Below, in pieces: positions 5,441 to 27,293 of a stretch of 64,000 bases of DNA. Under the pieces are notes generated by a model that searched no databases, had not been told where the DNA came from, and saw only the letters and a list, made by a program, of their open reading frames with translations. Every line of letters begins with the position of its first letter. The first letter of the stretch is position 1. The DNA lies in contig OZ240207.1 of the NCBI GenBank assembly GCA_965197415.1, positions 2,709,853 to 2,773,852 of the forward strand. The letters are read 5' to 3'. The DNA is from Dehalococcoidia bacterium (lineage in GTDB: Bacteria; Chloroflexota; Dehalococcoidia; Lucifugimonadales; JAGWBF01). The translations under genes and the position numbers were made by a program.

Positions 5441-5932
5441 TTACCGTACCCGGCCCGGCATGGAGTCGCTGAACTCCAGGGCGGCCACCCGCACGTTGAT
5501 TTCCTTGGCTATCAGGCCGCATATCTTCAAAACCCTGTCGGCCACGTTCTGCCTGAGATTGGTCACTACGTGGGGGATGCTGACGCCGTAGTAGACCCGT
5601 ATGGTGAGGTCGAGAATCGCTTCCCTCTTTCCGGCCTCCACGGTGACGCCTCTGGCTTGCCTGTTGGCTCCGGAGAACCGTTCGGACAACACCCGCCCTA
5701 TGGAGCTGGTGCCCACGTCGGCCACGCCGTCGACTTCCTTCGCGGCAACGCTTGCCACTGCCGCAATCACCTCGTCGTAAATGTTGGTCGAACCTTCCAC
5801 GGGAATGGAGGTGATTTTGCTGATCTCTTCCATCCTGGGGAGCATTTCGAGGTCTCGGACCGTCAGTTCGCTCATCACGGGCGCCGAGTTTGCCGAGTCT
5901 ACCGTCCGTTGGGTGTCTTGCTGTGCGGTCAT
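5441..5932 (-). CDS. Asp23/Gls24 family protein (second paralogue)
   Basis: The motifs YDEVIAAVASVAAKEVDGVADVG and EINVRVAAL match the Asp23 family. I chose the ATG at 5932 because AGGAGG lies 7 nt upstream, although the ORF extends to 6007. Confidence 0.8.
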   Translation of the reverse strand: MTAQQDTQRTVDSANSAPVMSELTVRDLEMLPRMEEISKITSIPVEGSTNIYDEVIAAVASVAAKEVDGVADVGTSSIGRVLSERFSGANRQARGVTVEAGKREAILDLTIRVYYGVSIPHVVTNLRQNVADRVLKICGLIAKEINVRVAALEFSDSMPGRVR

Positions 5933-7294: not shown

Positions 7295-8341
7295 ATGACA
7301 ACGGAGCGAGAGAAGTCCCTGGACATCGCCATAGCGCAAATCGAGCGCCAGTACGGCAAAGGCGCCATCATGCGTCTGGGCGCGGGGGCCGACAAGCTGG
7401 CCACCGAGGTGATTTCCACGGGCTGCCTGTCCCTGGACATGGCGTTGGGAGTGGGCGGAATTCCCAAGGGCAGGGTCTCAGAGATATTCGGGACTGAGTC
7501 GGCGGGCAAGTCCACCCTCGCGCTGCACATCATGGCGTCAACCCAGGCAACGGGCGGGACTGCCGCCTACATCGACGTGGAGCACGCCTTGGACCCGTCC
7601 TATGCGGCCAACTGCGGCGTCAAGATTGAAGACCTCCTAATTGCCCAGCCCGACAGCGCCGAGCAGGCCTTGGAGATAACGGAGTACCTGGTGCGGAGCG
7701 GCGCCGTGGACACGGTCATCGTGGACAGCGTGGCGGCTCTGGTGCCCAAGTCGGAGCTGGAAGGGGACATGGGAGACACCCACGTGGGTCTGCAGGCCAG
7801 GCTCATGTCCCAGGCGCTGCGAAAACTGACCGCCGCTATACACCACTCCAAGACGGCGGTGGTGTTCATCAACCAGCTTCGGGAGAAGGTGGGAGTGATT
7901 TACGGCAGCCCCGAGGTGACTCCAGGGGGCAGGGCGTTGAAGTTCTACAGCTCCGTGCGCATAGACCTGAGGCGGGCCGAGTCCATCAAGCAGGGCACAG
8001 AGGTGGTGGGCAGCAGGGTGCGCGCCCGCATCGTGAAGAACAAGGTTGCTCCGCCCTTCAGGACCGTCGAGTTCGACATCATGTTCAACCACGGCATCAG
8101 CAAAATGGGCGACCTGCTGGACCTGGGAGTGACCAAAGACATCGTCAAGAAGGCGGGCGCCTTCTACTCCTTTGGCGAAGTAAAACTGGGTCAGGGTCGC
8201 GAGAACTCCAAAGAGTTTCTTGAGCAGAACCCTGAGGTGGCCGCTCGGATAGAAGCTCTGGTCCGTGGGGACGACAAACCCTTGGACCTCGAACCTGTGA
8301 CGGTCGGCGAGCCGAAGCTGAATGGAGCCGCGAAGCTCTAG
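7295..8341 (+). CDS. recA: recombinase RecA
   Basis: The N-terminus ([22 protein letters not shown]), the Walker A motif (GTESAGKST) and overall collinearity with RecA support the call. Confidence 0.98.
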
Positions 8342-8898: not shown

Positions 8899-9593
8899 GG
8901 TTGCTCCTGTCTCCGATCTGACGGGCCGCGCTCCAGCCAGTCCTCTCGCCGGGCCACGTCCCTGTCCCTGAACAACCTGTTGAAATAGACCTCACGCAGA
9001 GGCACTCCCCTGGTCGGAGGGTTCCAGTTGGAGGTCAGGCGCTTCAACGTCACTAACCCCAATAGTCCCACACAGAACCAAGTAACTGCAAGTGGCTCCC
9101 CCAACAAAACGCTCCACACAGGCAACAACAGCAGGGATATGTATACCCATACCCCCGAGCTCCTGGTTATGAACCATCCGCCCAGTCCGATTCCCGAGAA
9201 GAGAATCAGCAACTGACACCATTCGTTGAGCCCCAGGACGAACAACGCCCCCAATGCCACGGCTATGCCTCTTCCCCCGGTGAATTTCAGGTAAAGGGAC
9301 CAATTATTGCCTGCTATGGCGGCCAGGGGCAGCCCGGTCAACAGAATGGACGAACGGTCCAAGTCGAGAACGTACATCCCAATCCATAGGGGAGAGCCGC
9401 CCTTCGCGAACAGCTCGAAGAGGCCCAGGGGAATCAACCAGCGTCCGCCCACGCTCTCGAAGAGGTTGGAGCCGCCGACGTTGCCGCTGCCAAAGCCGCG
9501 GATGTCGATGCCTTTTACAACACGGGCAATGACGTAGGCGGTGGGAACGGAACCTATGAGAAGAGCGTAGACGTAAAGGGCCGCCAGTTCCAC
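8895..9593 (-). CDS. plsY: glycerol-3-phosphate acyltransferase PlsY with a charged C-terminal tail
   Basis: The motifs LIGSVPTAYVIARVVKGIDIRGFGSGNVGGSN and GGRGIAV are typical of PlsY. Confidence 0.85.
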   Translation of the reverse strand: MELAALYVYALLIGSVPTAYVIARVVKGIDIRGFGSGNVGGSNLFESVGGRWLIPLGLFELFAKGGSPLWIGMYVLDLDRSSILLTGLPLAAIAGNNWSLYLKFTGGRGIAVALGALFVLGLNEWCQLLILFSGIGLGGWFITRSSGVWVYISLLLLPVWSVLLGEPLAVTWFCVGLLGLVTLKRLTSNWNPPTRGVPLREVYFNRLFRDRDVARREDWLERGPSDRRQEQP

Positions 9594-21104: not shown

Positions 21105-21384
21105 GACTGAACCTCCCTGGACTAAAGATGCGCGGCGAATGGTAGAAGCAGGGACATCATAGACCAAGCAGGCATAATTTGCCACCGGCTCCGGCTCGAA
21201 CCGTTGCCACTGACGGGCAGCCATGAGGAAGATGACCCTCTGGACAAGGTCAACCACAAGCGACTTGCCCTTTGAACGTCTAGTCCACCAAAACAGGCGC
21301 CATCGCTCGGATTAAGTTGGACAAGACGACGGGAAGTTGATATGGTAGAAACGGCTATTGTACTTCTACCCTCAAGGAGACCAA

Positions 21385-21642
21385 GTGAGCCTCAACATCA
21401 AGAACGAAGAGACGTGCCGGCTGGCCAGCGAGTTGGCTCAACTTACCGGCGAGACTATGACAGGCGCTATCACGGTCGCGCTCAAGGAGCGTCTGGAGCG
21501 CGAGAAACGTGAGCGCAGCGTCGAGACTCGTCTCCAAAAGATGCGGGCCATCTCAGAGCGAGTCGCCAAGTCGTTACGGGACGGCCCGTCTGCTGTCGAG
21601 CATGGTGACTTCCTCTATGACGAGCGTGGTCTTCCCAAGTGA
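21385..21642 (+). CDS. vapB: type II antitoxin VapB (Rv0623/PSK-like family)
   Basis: SLNIKNEETCRLASELAQLTGETMTGAITVALKERLERE is typical of this antitoxin family. The GTG at 21385 follows AAGGAGA. The stop overlaps the vapC start (GTGA). Confidence 0.85.
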   Translation: MSLNIKNEETCRLASELAQLTGETMTGAITVALKERLEREKRERSVETRLQKMRAISERVAKSLRDGPSAVEHGDFLYDERGLPK

Positions 21643-22025
21643 TTGTCGACACGTCAGCCGTCCTGGCAGTCCTGTTTAGAGAGTCGGACGCCGAGCGTTA
21701 TGACACAGCGATAGCAGAAGCTTCACGTTGCGGTATGTCGATGGCGAACCTCCTGGAGACCGCCATCGTCGTCGAAAGCCGCAGCGGCGGCGCGGCCGGA
21801 AATGAGCTTGATGCCTTCCTGGATGAAGCGGGGATTGAGTTGGAGCCAGTCACACTTGACCATGTGCGGGCTGCTCGCCGAGCTTGGAGGCGGTTTGGCA
21901 AGGGCAACCACCCGGCGGGGCTGAACTTCGGCGATTGCTTTGCCTACGCCCTGGCGGAAGTTTCCGGCGAGCCGCTTCTGTTCAAAGGCGGCGACTTCGA
22001 GCTTACCGACATCGAGGCCGCCTAA
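21639..22025 (+). CDS. vapC: PIN-domain toxin VapC
   Basis: The motifs IVDTSAVLAV, FGDCFAYALA and LLFKGGDF supply the PIN acidic residues. The gene is 128 aa and coupled to vapB. Confidence 0.9.
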   Translation: MIVDTSAVLAVLFRESDAERYDTAIAEASRCGMSMANLLETAIVVESRSGGAAGNELDAFLDEAGIELEPVTLDHVRAARRAWRRFGKGNHPAGLNFGDCFAYALAEVSGEPLLFKGGDFELTDIEAA

Positions 22026-23397: not shown

Positions 23398-24117
23398 TTA
23401 CGACGCCTCTTCCATCAGGATGCGCAGGTCGTTGACCACGTCGGCTGGGTCGAGGAAGAGGTTGTTAAACAACACACGCCTGACGCCCCAAGCGTCTATC
23501 AGGAAAATGGGCGCGGTATGGCCCACCAGATAACCTGAGTCCGACGCGTCCACCGTCTTCTCGTCCAGCGTATGTTGGTACCCTTCTGGGTGCTCATGAG
23601 GGCCGTACCGGTAGACTGTATCCCCGTCCGTGTTCTTGCCTGGGTCGGAGTCGACCTCCGTAACCACCGGAGCCAGCCAGTACTGGCTCCAGATGGGGCT
23701 CAGCTCCTCCTCGGCGCCTATCAAGTATTGCCACCGCCCTTCCATGCCCATGTATCGGGTGTATTCTCGCACTTGCTCCATGGTGTCACCCCTGGGGTCT
23801 ACCGATATGGTCAGGAAGTTGACCCTATCGACCTCTTCGGGAGCGAGCATCATATGGGCCTGCTGGAGGTTGGCCGTGACCAGGGGACAAACGTCAGGGC
23901 AGTTGGTATAGAGGAATGTCAGCAGGACCACCTCGCCCCGGAAGTCCAATAGAGACACGGACTCTCCGGTGTGGTCTATCAGCGTGAACTCTGGCGCCTG
24001 TTCCGGGTTGAGTTCTGTTCCCAGGAACGCTGATGAGGAAGCGCCGGAGCAGGCTCCTGCAGCCAAGAAAACCAGAGCCGTAAGCGCTACGGCTCTAAAT
24101 AAGGCGCCGAAATCCAT
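23398..24117 (-). CDS. SCO1/SenC-family copper chaperone (thioredoxin fold), lipoprotein-like N-terminus
   Basis: The CxxxC motif appears in LLTFLYTNCPDVCPLV. The protein has a signal/lipobox-like LAAGAC and lies next to the cytochrome oxidase cluster. Confidence 0.85.
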   Translation of the reverse strand: MDFGALFRAVALTALVFLAAGACSGASSSAFLGTELNPEQAPEFTLIDHTGESVSLLDFRGEVVLLTFLYTNCPDVCPLVTANLQQAHMMLAPEEVDRVNFLTISVDPRGDTMEQVREYTRYMGMEGRWQYLIGAEEELSPIWSQYWLAPVVTEVDSDPGKNTDGDTVYRYGPHEHPEGYQHTLDEKTVDASDSGYLVGHTAPIFLIDAWGVRRVLFNNLFLDPADVVNDLRILMEEAS

Positions 24118-24127
24118 GGTGGTTAGG

Positions 24128-24589
24128 CTAGCGTCTGGAAACCGCCAAAAGGGCCGCCACGGACGGGATTCCCAGGACGAGGCCCATTCCTATGATGATG
24201 GCTCCCCAGACCCCGGCTCCTGTCTCATTCAACACTATGAATATGATCCCTATGCCGCCTCCCCACCCGATTATGACTAAAGCGGCCAATATGGGTAGGA
24301 CCATTGCTAGAGACGGCCGTTTTAGAGCGGGCGACAGGAGGTCGGCGATTTCCGACATCTGTCTTTGCACAGCTTCGAACGGGGGAAGGAGTATATCCAG
24401 AATTGGTCGGTGGATCGCCGCCAGCAATGGGATTCCCACAACCAGGGCCATGCCGACAATGATGGCTCCCCAGACCCCGGCTCCGGTCTCATTCAAGACT
24501 ATGAATATGACCCCTATGCCGCCTCCCCATATGATTACGACTATAGCTGCCAACAGAGGCAGGGCCATTGCCAACGGCGTTCGTTGCAT
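24128..24589 (-). CDS. membrane protein consisting of an internal tandem duplication (function unknown)
   Basis: Two units of about 55 aa are nearly identical: IIWGGGIGVIFIVLNETGAGVWGAIIVGMALVVGIP and IGWGGGIGIIFIVLNETGAGVWGAIIIGMGLVLGIP. The DNA period is about 267 bp. Confidence 0.6.
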   Translation of the reverse strand: MQRTPLAMALPLLAAIVVIIWGGGIGVIFIVLNETGAGVWGAIIVGMALVVGIPLLAAIHRPILDILLPPFEAVQRQMSEIADLLSPALKRPSLAMVLPILAALVIIGWGGGIGIIFIVLNETGAGVWGAIIIGMGLVLGIPSVAALLAVSRR

Positions 24590-24716
24590 TGCTCTCTTCT
24601 ACACTCCCCTACGGGTTTCTAAGCTATGAATTCGGCGTCCAAAAGATACCACATACGGCATTATGTTTCCACAGCGCCAGCTAGGAAACAGCGCCTGTGT
24701 TCATGGCCCCCCACCG

Positions 24717-24766
24717 GTGACGGTGGGGCGGTTGGAGGCGTTCTCCTGGTTGGCCCATATCAGGAA
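24717..24766. repeat. left copy of an exact 50-nt direct repeat (relic of the ctaG 3' end)
   Basis: The sequence gtgacggtggggcggttggaggcgttctcctggttggcccatatcaggaa is identical to 26485-26534. On the minus strand it would read ...FLIWANQENASNRPTVTGGGP*. Confidence 0.9.
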
Positions 24767-24810
24767 GACGACGGAGGAACTAGTCTGCGGGAGTACGTCA
24801 TAGATGTCGA

Positions 24811-26256
24811 TCATCGTCCCGCAGAAGCCTGAGGCTGTAGCAGATTCAAGACAAGGGCAGACGCGTAGTCCTTACTATTCTCTCTTTTGACTTTGATATT
24901 TACCTGAACAAGCTTTTTGCACGGTGTGGTGAGGTTTTCGGCGTGAACGACACACGCAATTGCTCCCGAAACCTCATCCCCACGACCGTCAACACAAATT
25001 TCAACATCAAAAAAATGGTCGCCCGTTCCATGCCGCCACTGTTCGCATTCCAGGCTATACGACTCGACCGGCCCAGTCGGTCGAGTCGGTTTGTAGTAGA
25101 AGCCGTTAGGGTCGCGCCGATGGGTTGTAGGCGGAACAATATCAGCTGAACGAGGAGTCAGAATAGGGGAACGGGATATACCTTCGTTGAAACCTATGAG
25201 ACTCGACTTCTGTCTCCCACGTGGTCTGAGTGGAGGCCTAGGAAGGAGTAAATTACCTTCCTGGTCGTCCTCTGACTGGGGGTAAACCCTGAATCCTCCT
25301 TTCCCCGAGATGTCCACCAACGTGCCGCTTCCTGGGCGAGTTCCTTCGTTAGCAATTGCAAACCGGAGGAAGGGTCTACTTGACTGTTGCAAAGCTAGAT
25401 GCAAACCTGACAACTTCGCTTGGCAATCTCTTCTCCAATCCACTAAGTGACGATTGTATTCATCAATATCCCCGCGGGATGGAGGTACACGCTCTTCTTT
25501 TCTCCAGGGTGGTTGATTGTTGTGCTTGACATGAAGTTTTGCTGCGTCCACTTCATCGATCGGTGGGAACCCATCCCTTAACTTTCGAAGGAGTTCTCTG
25601 ACTTCATCATCGGTCAATGGGCTATAAACTCCGCACTCGACCTCGATCGATTCTATTTCCTTACCTTGTTCGTCGATACACCTGATCTGGAATAGAGGGT
25701 CAGCTTTCTTAAGCCGCTCAAGCTCGTTTTGAAGGCGCGCAACCTCTCGTTCTTTCGTGGTGCTTTCAGGTGGTAGCAGCCATTCATCTTTGACAGGAGT
25801 AAACGAGAGACTGATGCTCTTCGCCGTCATCATAAGGCCAGTATCATGGGTGAGTAGCTGTACAGACGAACTCTCTTGTTCTTCTCTATATCTGTAACAG
25901 CATCCCGCGATTTCATCATCTAGCTTGCTGTAATCAAGACGGTCCTTCAAATCTTGACTGGGCAGATTAGTCGGATCAATGTAGAGTCGTACGTGCGGCG
26001 CTGATTCTCGAACAAGATGATATCCCTCGTTACTGGAAACGATACTCTGAAAAATAGAATTAGCCTTACGTGCGCGTCGCCCTACTCGGTCGTTTCCCCT
26101 GGATTTCTGATTGTCTATCTCCCTTTGAACTGGACGACATACGATTAAATGGATTTCCTCGAAATCTCCGCAATCTGACCAATCAATTTCCTCTAACGGT
26201 CGGCATTGAATAAACAAGTTAGTATCAGGGAATAGGTAAAGGACGCGATTGGTCAT
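24811..26256 (-). CDS. PIN-like (DUF4935-type) nuclease-domain protein with a coiled-coil and a large uncharacterised C-terminal region
   Basis: The N-terminus shows LFPDTNLFIQC...VCRPVQREIDN...DDEIAGCC...LLTHDTGLMMTAK, which is the PIN acidic-residue pattern. A coiled coil (KEREVARLQNELERLKK) follows. I recognise no motif in the C-terminal 250 aa. The ATG has a GAGGTGG RBS. Confidence 0.6.
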   Translation of the reverse strand: MTNRVLYLFPDTNLFIQCRPLEEIDWSDCGDFEEIHLIVCRPVQREIDNQKSRGNDRVGRRARKANSIFQSIVSSNEGYHLVRESAPHVRLYIDPTNLPSQDLKDRLDYSKLDDEIAGCCYRYREEQESSSVQLLTHDTGLMMTAKSISLSFTPVKDEWLLPPESTTKEREVARLQNELERLKKADPLFQIRCIDEQGKEIESIEVECGVYSPLTDDEVRELLRKLRDGFPPIDEVDAAKLHVKHNNQPPWRKEERVPPSRGDIDEYNRHLVDWRRDCQAKLSGLHLALQQSSRPFLRFAIANEGTRPGSGTLVDISGKGGFRVYPQSEDDQEGNLLLPRPPLRPRGRQKSSLIGFNEGISRSPILTPRSADIVPPTTHRRDPNGFYYKPTRPTGPVESYSLECEQWRHGTGDHFFDVEICVDGRGDEVSGAIACVVHAENLTTPCKKLVQVNIKVKRENSKDYASALVLNLLQPQASAGR

Positions 26257-26468
26257 TCTTCCACCTCTTGAGCATGTTGCCGGACATCAACCTCACCCCC
26301 ACGCCAACTACGGCAGCCAAGCGTCTTGATGGACGGAGTGTGTGCGGGATTCTTCCACACGGTACCGGCGCCTATCCAACAACTTAGAGGGTCACTCGTT
26401 GACCTGGCCTACTCTCCATTCTACCAGTTACAACTTGGGACGATAGCCCATCACTAGTGGACAGTGGA

Positions 26469-27293
26469 TTATCGGTCTGAACCCGTGACGGTGGGGCGGT
26501 TGGAGGCGTTCTCCTGGTTGGCCCATATCAGGAAAATAACGGCGAGGGCGCCAACAAAGAAGAGGCCGCCGGGCACCCACATGATGATGCCGCCTATCTG
26601 CTGGTCAGACACCACCGAAGTGCCCCATATCCTTGGAGCCTCGGCGTACCATTCGTATATCCCGGCATCGCTGAAAGTAATCAGCGCTCCAAGGATGGTA
26701 GGAATCGTGGGCTGGGCTACTAGGTAGACCATCTGGACCAGGTAAGAAGGCCGGGGAAGCTCCCTCATCCGGCTCATGATGGGCCACCAGAGAAGGATGC
26801 CTCCTCCTATAAATAGGATATGCTCCAGTATGTGTATTCCTCTGTCCCTCAGAGCCCCGTCGTACAGAGCGGGTACGTGCCACAGGACAAATATGAAATT
26901 GAAGATGAGGAAGGCGGGAATCGGCCTTGTGATGAACCGCAGCGCTGGCAGTACCCTCCGACCATTGACCAGCGGGCGGATCAGCCAAGGCGGGGCGCCG
27001 GCCAGCAAGAACGGCGGCGAAACCAGGGTCAACAGCAGGTGCTGGACCATGTGTGCCGAGAAGAGGTACTTGTCTCCCAGCTCGTGGATAGGCGACAGCA
27101 GGGCCACGAAGAGGACCAGGACCCCAGTGAGAAACAGGGCCACTTCCCCCGAGCCGAGGGCTTCGGACCCTTGAAAGCGTTTCCTAAGCGGTCCCACGCC
27201 CAGAAGGTAGAGAGCCGTGAATGTCAGGAGGCCTATGACAACGCTGGGATGGGCGTGCCATTCCGTCCAGGAGAATTGGACCTCAGCGGGCAA
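26469..27293 (-). CDS. ctaG: cytochrome c oxidase assembly factor CtaG (caa3-type, membrane)
   Basis: The motifs HMVQHLLLTLVSPPFLLAG and FVLWHVPALYD are typical of Caa3_CtaG. The gene sits within the cox cluster. Confidence 0.8.
   Translation of the reverse strand: MPAEVQFSWTEWHAHPSVVIGLLTFTALYLLGVGPLRKRFQGSEALGSGEVALFLTGVLVLFVALLSPIHELGDKYLFSAHMVQHLLLTLVSPPFLLAGAPPWLIRPLVNGRRVLPALRFITRPIPAFLIFNFIFVLWHVPALYDGALRDRGIHILEHILFIGGGILLWWPIMSRMRELPRPSYLVQMVYLVAQPTIPTILGALITFSDAGIYEWYAEAPRIWGTSVVSDQQIGGIIMWVPGGLFFVGALAVIFLIWANQENASNRPTVTGSDR
26485..26534. repeat. right copy of the exact 50-nt direct repeat (functional 3' end of ctaG)
   Basis: This copy is identical to 24717-24766 and encodes ...FLIWANQENASNRPTVTG of the CtaG-like protein. 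Confidence 0.9.

Follow-up and report, generated by a model that had tools for sequence, protein, structure and literature searches.

A PIN_4 nuclease gene lodged at ctaG in a Dehalococcoidia genome belongs to a family found in defence operons and may encode a conflict effector

Introduction

In a 64,000-nucleotide stretch of contig OZ240207.1 from a Dehalococcoidia bacterium (this whole stretch is hereafter called the window), a gene for a 481-residue protein with a PIN domain lies on the minus strand at positions 24811-26256, inside a cytochrome oxidase (cox) gene cluster and between two copies of a direct repeat. The question raised by this locus is what such a gene does, and how it came to stand, as a single-gene cassette, between the assembly factor gene ctaG and the next gene of the cluster. 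An earlier annotation of the locus (the original prediction) took it for a candidate stand-alone defence or abortive-infection effector. Based on the domains of the protein, on the genomic neighbourhoods of its family and on the alleles present at the same site in related genomes, we consider it moderately probable that the protein is an autonomous sensor-plus-RNase effector of the abortive-infection type, engaged in genetic conflict or anti-phage defence and perhaps acting behind restriction-modification (R-M).

Several known systems provide the frame for this reading. PrrC and Ronin are effectors which are restrained by the subunits of type I R-M systems and freed by anti-restriction proteins (10.1101/2023.04.06.535777), while RloC is described as a relative of PrrC that acts autonomously and seldom has a link to R-M (PMC3458546). 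Genes nested in type I R-M, BREX or DISARM loci are mostly defence genes, a principle termed "guilt by embedding" (10.1101/2024.01.29.577857), and a 2017 classification of PIN domains makes the generic remark that some PIN genes, at times without an antitoxin, are coupled to type I R-M subunits (PMC5499597). Defence-embedded RNase effectors are, as a kind, already known; the family treated here, in which a PIN_4 domain is joined to a beta-sandwich, is uncharacterised, and our literature search found no paper describing it. If the protein is a defence effector, it would add a PIN_4 RNase with an Ig-like module, as a new architecture, to the few effectors nested in type I R-M operons, in a family common in uncultivated lineages, whose defence repertoire is poorly charted; if it is not defensive, it would be an orphan, horizontally acquired RNase gene and no more.

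Results and Discussion

A PIN_4 nuclease domain joined to a family-specific C-terminal module

The open reading frame (ORF) at 24811-26256 is a real gene and not a chance ORF, since at least 664 full-length relatives came up among the 5.8 billion proteins searched and the ratio of nonsynonymous to synonymous substitution rates (dN/dS) against its two orthologues (L057 and L058, in our numbering of loci) is 0.23-0.27. The best 120 relatives are 41-73% identical over ~98% of the length, are named at most "PIN domain-containing protein", and have, in 120/120 cases, a precomputed match to PF13638. Among 218 full-length members, the set on which the conservation values below are based, the window protein departs from the consensus at the 90% level or above at just 3 positions. 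The protein itself matched 0 families of PADLOC-DB v2.0.0 at E up to 10 and had 0 matches in NCBIfam and PHROGs, in agreement with the earlier statement that no named defence system fits; the family profile, additionally, had no matches among PDB sequences.

The N-terminal part matches Pfam PIN_4 (PF13638) over residues 11-150 (E=5.7e-14, 53 bits against a cutoff of 21.9, profile positions 4-126 of 132), and the only other match in a Pfam scan at E up to 10 was a sub-threshold one to FerI. The acidic residues are nearly invariant in the family (E46 97%, D48 98%, D113 100%, D138 99%) and all are kept in the window protein, as is D11, which is at least 90% conserved in the family alignment A1. 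In Foldseek searches, the best matches of this domain were two EST1A/SMG6 PIN structures (2dok_A and 2hww_B, E 2.3e-5 and 4.7e-5, with target-normalised template modelling (TM) scores of 0.53-0.57), with further matches to Nmd4, the Dis3 PIN domain and AF0591; SMG6/EST1A, Nmd4 and the Dis3 PIN domain are all RNases. SMG6 cleaves single-stranded RNA, not single-stranded DNA, and has the active-site acidic residues D1251/E1282/D1353/D1392 (PMC5499597), which we liken to the PIN_4 set as a group and not residue by residue. In the 2017 classification, PIN_4.COG1875 takes in SMG6, Swt1 and PhoH2, and the housekeeping RNases SMG6 and PhoH2 are thereby PIN_4 members (PMC5499597). With this group (SMG6, SMG5, Swt1, PhoH2/YlaK) the window protein shares the PF13638 match over the N-terminal 160 residues, the nearest structures and the site of four acidic residues, but it has no PhoH ATPase, no partner domains of the nonsense-mediated decay type and no adjacent antitoxin, and carries instead a family-specific beta-sandwich module of 300 residues, absent from that classification (PMC5499597). 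From the profile and structure matches we infer that the PIN domain is probably a metal-dependent RNase of the SMG6 type.

The C-terminal module is as strongly conserved as the PIN active site, with W274, C278, N303, G305, P342, C404, W407, R408, H409 and N441 invariant. In the AlphaFold model of the whole protein (input alignment of 40 sequences, mean predicted local distance difference test (pLDDT) score of 86), this module is composed of a small alpha/beta unit (residues 189-229), a helical hairpin (261-292), an Ig-like beta-sandwich (296-326 and 387-460) and a C-terminal helix. The predicted TM score (pTM) is 0.54 for the full-length model and 0.78 for the module modelled alone (pLDDT 88), a difference which suggests a flexible hinge at the linker helix, with the module predicted to fold as one rigid unit. 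Foldseek searches with the module against PDB and BFVD returned generic Ig-like, DUF11-like and CARDB-like sandwiches (E 5e-5 to 1e-3, query-normalised TM ~0.25-0.3); no specific structural relative was found in these two databases, whether with the full model or with the module alone, and no CARDB or DUF11 family matched it in the Pfam scan. The predicted fold class, an Ig-like beta-sandwich, is clear, and its likeness to CARDB/DUF11 is generic. When the C-terminal 292 residues served as query for an exhaustive HMMER scan, matches came from 825 clusters (50% identity), nearly always at positions ~190-500 of PIN proteins of ~500 residues and with essentially no other domain partner; because of this constant position, the module appears confined to this PIN family instead of moving among effectors. 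Set within the beta-sandwich there is a Pro/Arg-rich loop, gap-rich and variable in the alignments, which contains an invariant PPxPP motif and is the most divergent segment among the orthologues (32-47% nucleotide identity).

Much of the original prediction for this protein stands. The minus-strand ORF is there, with every motif quoted (FPDTN at residues 9-13, REID at 45-48, DDEI at 113-116, THDTG at 136-140 and EREVARLQNELERLKK at 169-184); the PIN-like nuclease N-terminus with its intact acidic tetrad agrees with Pfam PIN_4, conservation and Foldseek; and the Cys-containing, beta-rich C-terminal region, in which nothing had been recognised, is strongly conserved and indeed matches nothing named. 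Three points have to be revised. The proposed resemblance to DUF4935/PIN_12 was wrong, Pfam and Foldseek placing the domain in PIN_4 (SMG6/PhoH2 group) instead; the "short coiled coil" is, in the AlphaFold model, a single helix of 17 residues (167-183), better named a linker helix; and the "Pro/Arg-rich linker" is not interdomain, being the low-confidence loop inside the C-terminal beta-sandwich (~335-385). DUF4935 itself (PF16289, in proteins of ~350 residues) gave no match in the Pfam scan at E up to 10, and both the length and the C-terminal fold differ.

The family recurs in type I R-M operons and beside other defence genes

Genomic neighbourhoods were compared for 56 loci from GTDB species-representative genomes (Dehalococcoidia, Binatia, Latescibacterota, Gemmatimonadota, Acidobacteriota, Verrucomicrobiota, Alpha-, Beta- and Gammaproteobacteria), with the neighbour genes being clustered, checked with Pfam and PADLOC and then counted by means of hidden Markov models (HMMs) built from the clusters, using a radius of 8 kb for type I R-M. 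The clusters identified in this way were HsdS, HsdM, HsdR, AbiEi, AbiEii-WYL and a ThsB-like TIR protein. Type I R-M genes are present within 8 kb in 21/56 loci, the typical order being hsdM-hsdS-PIN-(ThsB-like TIR)-hsdR, and in 15 loci the PIN start lies between -32 and +25 nt from the hsdS stop; HsdM and HsdS occur with no HsdR within 8 kb in L004, L018 and L027. The PIN gene directly follows AbiEi/AbiEii in 5 loci (4 of them with gaps of 10-15 nt), it has DrmA and DrmB of DISARM upstream in L013, and PD-Lambda-4 is nearby in L021. Other neighbours include RmrA, PDC-S01, PD-Lambda-2, CapP, type IIG R-M, VapC-type PINs, HEPN/MNT, transposases and integrases. Among four independent loci outside the GTDB set, one is a canonical embedded copy (L066, hsdM-HEPN/MNT-hsdS-PIN-hsdR), one lies in a defence islet (L065, HsdS-SIR2-PIN-Schlafen/AlbA_2-HNH) and two (L067 and L068) are solitary copies amid metabolic genes, like the one in the window.

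The check for defence-island enrichment among the homologues was therefore favourable to the original prediction, with 21/56 loci in type I R-M operons, others with AbiE, DISARM or further defence genes, and no uniform housekeeping context; cox genes were never seen beside family members outside the window lineage in the 56 loci. The earlier remark that the gene has no partner ORF holds for the window cassette and fails for the family, whose commonest context is directly downstream of hsdS in a type I R-M operon; a recurrent small antitoxin-like neighbour was found in none of the 56 loci. Embedded and solitary copies are intermixed in a distance tree, in which the nearest neighbour shares the context in just 30/48 cases.

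In most of the 56 loci, across many phyla, the GC content of the PIN gene is ~10 points below that of its flanks (45-52% against 57-62% on both sides in the window), and distant plasmid-borne homologues were found near AbiEii and IS6 elements; these two observations argue for horizontal acquisition of the gene. The family, with at least 825 clusters, has members in Chloroflexota, Binatia, Latescibacterota, Poribacteria, Gemmatimonadota, Acidobacteriota, Verrucomicrobiota and Proteobacteria, and most of its members come from uncultivated lineages. Many carriers are metagenome-assembled genomes (MAGs) of Poribacteria, Latescibacterota, Binatia and SAR202/Dehalococcoidia, in bins named APA_, RHO3_ and IRC3_; we take these lineages to be typical of sponge and marine microbiomes and, from their naming only, presume the bins to be of sponge origin.

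Some further observations concern the loci themselves. A ThsB-like TIR protein (~129 residues) followed by a protein of ~167 residues recurs between the PIN gene and hsdR (L002, L011, L015, L022 and L033), and because these two recur beside the PIN gene, several type I R-M operons appear to carry more than one embedded candidate effector. Frameshifts have divided the copies in L020, L026, L030, L045 and L046 into two ORFs, the C-terminal one of ~180 residues, and only N-terminal fragments survive in L048-L054, which indicates that decay is probably frequent as well as gain. In L006, L010, L025 and L042, the PIN gene is adjoined by ORFs of 1287-1456 residues with no Pfam or PADLOC match, which could be large proteins not seen before, or else artefacts that arise from calling the longest ORF in high-GC DNA.

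A repeat-bounded cassette with occupied and empty sites and mosaic alleles

In the window, the PIN gene is carried by a cassette of 1.77 kb (the gene together with a second, 62-nt copy of the ctaG tail), in operon orientation and with ctaG left unbroken. The repeat search found the two 62-nt copies that bound it to be 94% identical (Table 1). The functional ctaG now ends in TVTGSDR, with its last codons coming from the cassette, and the displaced tail reads TVTGGGP, which is the same ending as that of ctaG in an unoccupied relative (L061). The earlier view of a repeat-bounded insertion with a single cargo gene fits both the repeat and the GC dip: between the repeats, no ORF but the PIN gene has homologues, and no element-encoded integrase or recombinase (ORFs and Pfam) and no antitoxin-like partner (ORF list) was found there. 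Scans of the cassette for a sigma-70-type promoter, a terminator or an Rfam element gave nothing above background, the whole window has no tRNA genes, and blastn and blastx searches with the 212-nt spacer found no remnant of a former neighbour (such as an hsdS tail), with nothing outside L058; the 5' part of the cassette is kept in L058 and has no relatives elsewhere. With integrase-borne islets flanked by attL and attR, the cassette shares insertion at a gene 3' end, direct repeats and a substitute end (SDR-stop) displacing the original one (GGGP-stop), but it differs from them in having no integrase, no excisionase and no tRNA target, and in being only 1.77 kb long with a single gene. When flanking direct repeats were searched for in all 56 loci, they were convincing for the window lineage only, and weak or distant in L022, L026, L032, L019 and L028.

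The two closest homologues (L057, 73% identical, and L058, 62%) stand at exactly the same site, in the order ctaG, PIN, 153-residue membrane protein, SCO1, and a duplication of the ctaG tail (62-75 nt) is common to these two genomes and the window. In the outgroup Dehalococcoidia L063 and L064 (CtaG ~65% identical), ctaG is followed by ~60 nt, the gene of a 65-residue membrane protein and SCO1, with no PIN gene. Over the cox region, L061 is 92-93% identical in nucleotides to both the window and L058. Its ctaG is complete, ends in TGGGP-stop and runs directly into the native downstream sequence; we read this ctaG, on a contig which stops 40 nt past its stop codon, as an unoccupied site. The cassette is, as far as these assemblies tell, a presence/absence polymorphism inside a conserved operon. 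L057 is the most distant of the four genomes (~85% nucleotide identity) yet it is occupied, and therefore the simplest history would be an early insertion, with the cassette since lost from L061 when its two repeats recombined, or else spread by homologous exchange. The 62-nt duplication illustrates how one defence-type gene can settle in an essential operon, or be lost from it, while the operon stays intact.

The L061 contig (ena:ERZ25069191:ctg467756_4x_l) stops at 5868, exactly where occupied and empty haplotypes would split, and strain heterogeneity in the sample may be the reason; its COX3 is split into two ORFs. The L057 duplication is longer (~75 nt), extending through the stop codon and beyond (7723-7802 and 9465-9560), and both of its copies carry the same L057-specific substitutions, which suggests gene conversion between them within the genome.

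The PIN gene has diverged more than its surroundings. Between the window and L058, the flanking proteins are 94-98% identical, with synonymous divergence (dS) of 0.10-0.37, against 62% identity and dS ~1.0 for the PIN protein; between the window and L057, the flanking proteins are 79-95% identical (most ~90%), against 73% for the PIN protein. A sliding-window comparison resolves this divergence into segments. Codons 1-45 follow the relatedness of the hosts, with the window near L058 (89-94% nucleotide identity). In codons 46-195, the window and L057 are 90-96% identical, above their host-level identity of 84.6%, with L058 at 44-64%; over these residues, L058 resembles unrelated family members at least as closely as it does the window. 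Codons 196-300 are 83-96% identical between L057 and L058 with the window divergent, and in codons 331-375 (the loop) the window is unlike both. The dN/dS values given above argue that the gene is kept by selection, and the alleles at ctaG have the appearance of a recombination mosaic under purifying selection; a selected gene with segments seemingly swapped among alleles is a pattern common in conflict genes. The window lineage amounts to a natural experiment, with one orthologous site occupied or empty in close relatives and segment-swapped alleles under purifying selection, and its alleles are useful for asking which parts of the protein face diversifying pressure. Some genomes hold two paralogues of the family, namely L013 and L022 (~57 kb apart on contig CBDCJA010000002.1) and L001 and L047 (in one MAG); in the first pair, one paralogue adjoins DISARM genes and the other lies in a type I R-M operon, and such paralogues are potential donors for segmental exchange.

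Proposed mode of action and alternative explanations

In the mechanism that we propose, the gene would encode a cytoplasmic protein of two parts, an N-terminal PIN_4 RNase and a family-specific Ig-like beta-sandwich module of ~300 residues, joined by a hinge helix. The C-terminal module would bind a protein or ligand that signals infection, or would keep the PIN domain inactive, and the PIN domain, once triggered, would cleave RNA (tRNA, rRNA or mRNA) and translation would stop. Since its preferred home is after hsdS in type I R-M operons, and also after AbiEi/AbiEii and beside DISARM, the effector is probably co-expressed as a second line behind DNA restriction, conceptually similar to PrrC and RloC; and its frequent occurrence on its own points to probable autonomy in the manner of RloC, and not to obligate silencing by an R-M complex as for PrrC and RonA. 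The window copy would be a solitary version of this effector, placed as a cassette in operon orientation between ctaG and the next gene of the cox cluster. An anti-phage role is, in view of the genomic context, plausible. A more specific and rather doubtful extension of this idea is that the Ig-like module senses phage anti-restriction proteins or the state of type I R-M and unleashes the SMG6-type PIN RNase within a single-protein immune effector; this would be a third, structurally unrelated way of "guarding restriction" after PrrC and Ronin, with the sensor loop and the PIN core shuffled by recombination in an arms race.

A number of observations weigh against such a defence role. Approximately 24 of the 56 GTDB loci (~40%, window included) and 2 of the 4 independent ones have no recognised defence neighbour under the models applied, and hsd, abiE and TIR genes are absent from the window itself when HMMs are run against all of its ORFs. 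The neighbourhood counts come without a matched genomic background, so that the estimate of enrichment rests on how seldom type I R-M loci generally occur in a genome, and gene calls in the loci were made by the longest ORF, with some neighbours in high-GC loci probably being spurious. Searches with tblastn gave no homologues in phage genomes, and the protein matches no PADLOC-DB v2.0.0 model of a known or candidate defence system. For every family member, RNase activity, toxicity and phage protection are putative; PIN-like domains can also act on DNA, and the RNA substrate of the window protein is likewise putative. Finally, because the matches of its beta-sandwich are generic (TM ~0.25-0.3), the sensing role of the C-terminal module is a conjecture.

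The comparison with characterised systems shows both likeness and distance. As with prrC, a predicted RNase gene lies between hsdS and hsdR, and as with rloC, it often stands alone, so that it is a plausible back-up of restriction; but PrrC and RloC combine an ABC-ATPase with an anticodon-nuclease domain, whereas the window protein combines PIN_4 with an Ig-like module, an unrelated fold, and has PIN_4 as its sole match in PADLOC, Pfam and NCBIfam. The linkage to R-M is also intermediate, at ~38% in the PIN family (21/56; the window copy is unlinked) against "always" for prrC and "rarely" for rloC. Ronin (HsdM-HsdS with RonA) is similar in the tight linkage of an effector gene to hsdS and hsdM, and a few PIN loci have no hsdR within 8 kb, but RonA is a membrane protein of 61 residues, always linked to hsdMS and with no hsdR (10.1101/2023.04.06.535777), whereas the PIN family proteins have 480-510 residues, are soluble, are often unlinked and, when linked to R-M, mostly have hsdR. 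With the embedded candidates (PADLOC PDC families; HEC-03, an ABC-ATPase with PIN; HEC-09, an NYN protein) the family shares same-strand nesting in type I R-M or DISARM and a PIN-like predicted effector; these guilt-by-embedding candidates carry the PDC- prefix, also in PADLOC-DB v2.0.0, where we assume that they are included, and the window protein differs from them in having 0 PADLOC v2 matches and in being a single polypeptide without an ATPase partner. VapBC toxins share the PIN fold and the acidic active site, but have ~130 residues, belong to PF01850 and come with an upstream antitoxin, whereas the window protein has 481 residues, belongs to PIN_4 and has no upstream antitoxin gene.

Of the competing explanations, the first is a strict guard of R-M like PrrC or Ronin, in which the beta-sandwich would bind HsdM and HsdS (and possibly HsdR), holding the PIN domain inactive until an anti-restriction attack on R-M releases the RNase. 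The 15 loci where the PIN frame overlaps or abuts that of hsdS, the embedding between hsdS and hsdR as for prrC, the three loci that resemble Ronin (10.1101/2023.04.06.535777) in having HsdM and HsdS without HsdR, and the usual role of Ig-like domains as protein-protein interaction modules all speak for it. The same gene, however, also follows AbiEii, adjoins DISARM genes and is often solitary, so that for solitary copies, among them the one in the window, which has no hsd genes, the type I R-M system would have to be supplied from another part of the genome; and with embedded and solitary copies scattered among each other in the tree, it is unlikely that a single partner complex obligately silences the protein. 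The strict mechanism is possible, though weakened by the many solitary and non-R-M contexts, and we regard it as rather unlikely. Less probable still is an addiction toxin or selfish hitch-hiker, where the PIN RNase would stabilise its host R-M operon or island, or spread selfishly, with no protection from phage. PIN is the commonest type II toxin domain, type I R-M operons have been seen to contain PIN genes that have no antitoxin (PMC5499597), and low GC, broad horizontal spread and the decayed or frameshifted copies would all suit such an element; but no small antitoxin-like ORF adjoins the gene in the window or is conserved across loci, a conserved extra module of 300 residues is unexpected in a simple toxin, and the gene is under purifying selection in three diverged genomes at a site where repeat recombination could delete it. 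A classic toxin-antitoxin (TA) toxin of the VapBC type (~130 residues with an upstream antitoxin) was considered and rejected, given the 481 residues and a 212-nt spacer with no conserved ORF.

The remaining two explanations are less probable again. A self-mobilising, homing-like nuclease that cuts DNA at or near gene 3' ends, promoting its own insertion, would account for the long target duplication, for the precise position of a single-gene cassette at the ctaG 3' end with a 62-75-nt duplication in three genomes, for the many copies that abut the 3' end of hsdS or abiEii and for a cassette with no integrase or transposase. Flanking duplications near the gene are nevertheless confined to the window lineage (and, weakly, L022, L026 and L032), the PIN_4 relatives of known substrate are RNases, the three occupied sites are orthologous, as expected from one old event plus recombination and not from repeated homing, and we know of no PIN-based homing endonuclease; we hold this explanation to be very improbable. 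The least credible explanation is a housekeeping RNase for RNA processing or quality control tied to the cytochrome oxidase operon, despite the shared strand and operon position with ctaG, the membrane-protein gene and SCO1 in three related genomes, and despite PIN_4 taking in the housekeeping RNases SMG6 and PhoH2. It is largely refuted because of the empty sites, the gene being absent from the same operon in the outgroup Dehalococcoidia and in the close relative L061, and its GC content 10 points under the flanks, its mosaic structure, its divergence, far faster than that of the flanking genes, and its relatives elsewhere, which were never seen with cox genes and instead lie with defence genes, all stand against it. 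In short, TA-toxin, homing-gene and housekeeping explanations fit worse than a conflict effector.

Coordinates and neighbouring features

The positions of the gene, of its domains and of the features surrounding the cassette are given in Table 1.

Table 1. Features of the PIN gene and of its insertion site (window positions).
Feature	Position	Strand	Basis
Gene of the protein with PIN_4 and C-terminal module, 481 aa, ATG start	24811..26256	-	Stop codon 24811-24813; ORF list
PIN_4 nuclease domain (predicted), residues 1-160; acidic D11, E46/D48, D113/D114, D138	25777..26256	-	Pfam, conservation, Foldseek
Linker helix, residues 167-183 (the "coiled coil" of the original prediction)	25708..25758	-	DSSP on AlphaFold model
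Conserved C-terminal module, residues 189-481	24814..25692	-	Models, conservation, exhaustive search
Disordered hypervariable Pro/Arg-rich loop, residues ~335-385, inside the beta-sandwich	25102..25254	-	pLDDT <50 for 353-377
Direct repeat copy R1, present ctaG 3' end, codons for ...VIFLIWANQENASNRPTVTG	26481..26542	.	Repeat search; CtaG Pfam
Direct repeat copy R2, remnant of the former ctaG 3' end, now displaced, ...VVFLIWANQENASNRPTVTGGGP-stop	24713..24774	.	Repeat search; L061 comparison
Cassette 5' part, new last ctaG codons (SDR-stop, stop 26469-26471) and 212-nt spacer before the PIN start	26257..26480	-	Sequence comparison
ctaG (Caa3_CtaG cytochrome oxidase assembly factor), target with duplicated 3' end	26469..27293	-	Pfam E=8.7e-61
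153-aa membrane protein gene, next in operon; with SCO1/SenC defines the native right-hand context	24128..24589	-	ORF, repeat and outgroup comparison
SCO1/SenC gene, after the 153-aa membrane protein gene	23398-24117		Pfam

Two observations were made on the neighbouring genes. The 153-residue membrane protein is an internal tandem duplication, with a 169-nt repeat, 81% identical, at 24153-24321 and 24417-24585, and its parent is the 65-residue protein which is single-copy in the outgroup operons L063 and L064. At 21358-22025 on the plus strand, 3 kb from the cassette, there is a VapBC-type pair, formed by a 94-residue PSK_trans_fac/Rv0623-like antitoxin gene overlapping that of a 128-residue PF01850 PIN toxin; this pair is itself polymorphic, with both genes present in L058 and the antitoxin gene alone in L057.

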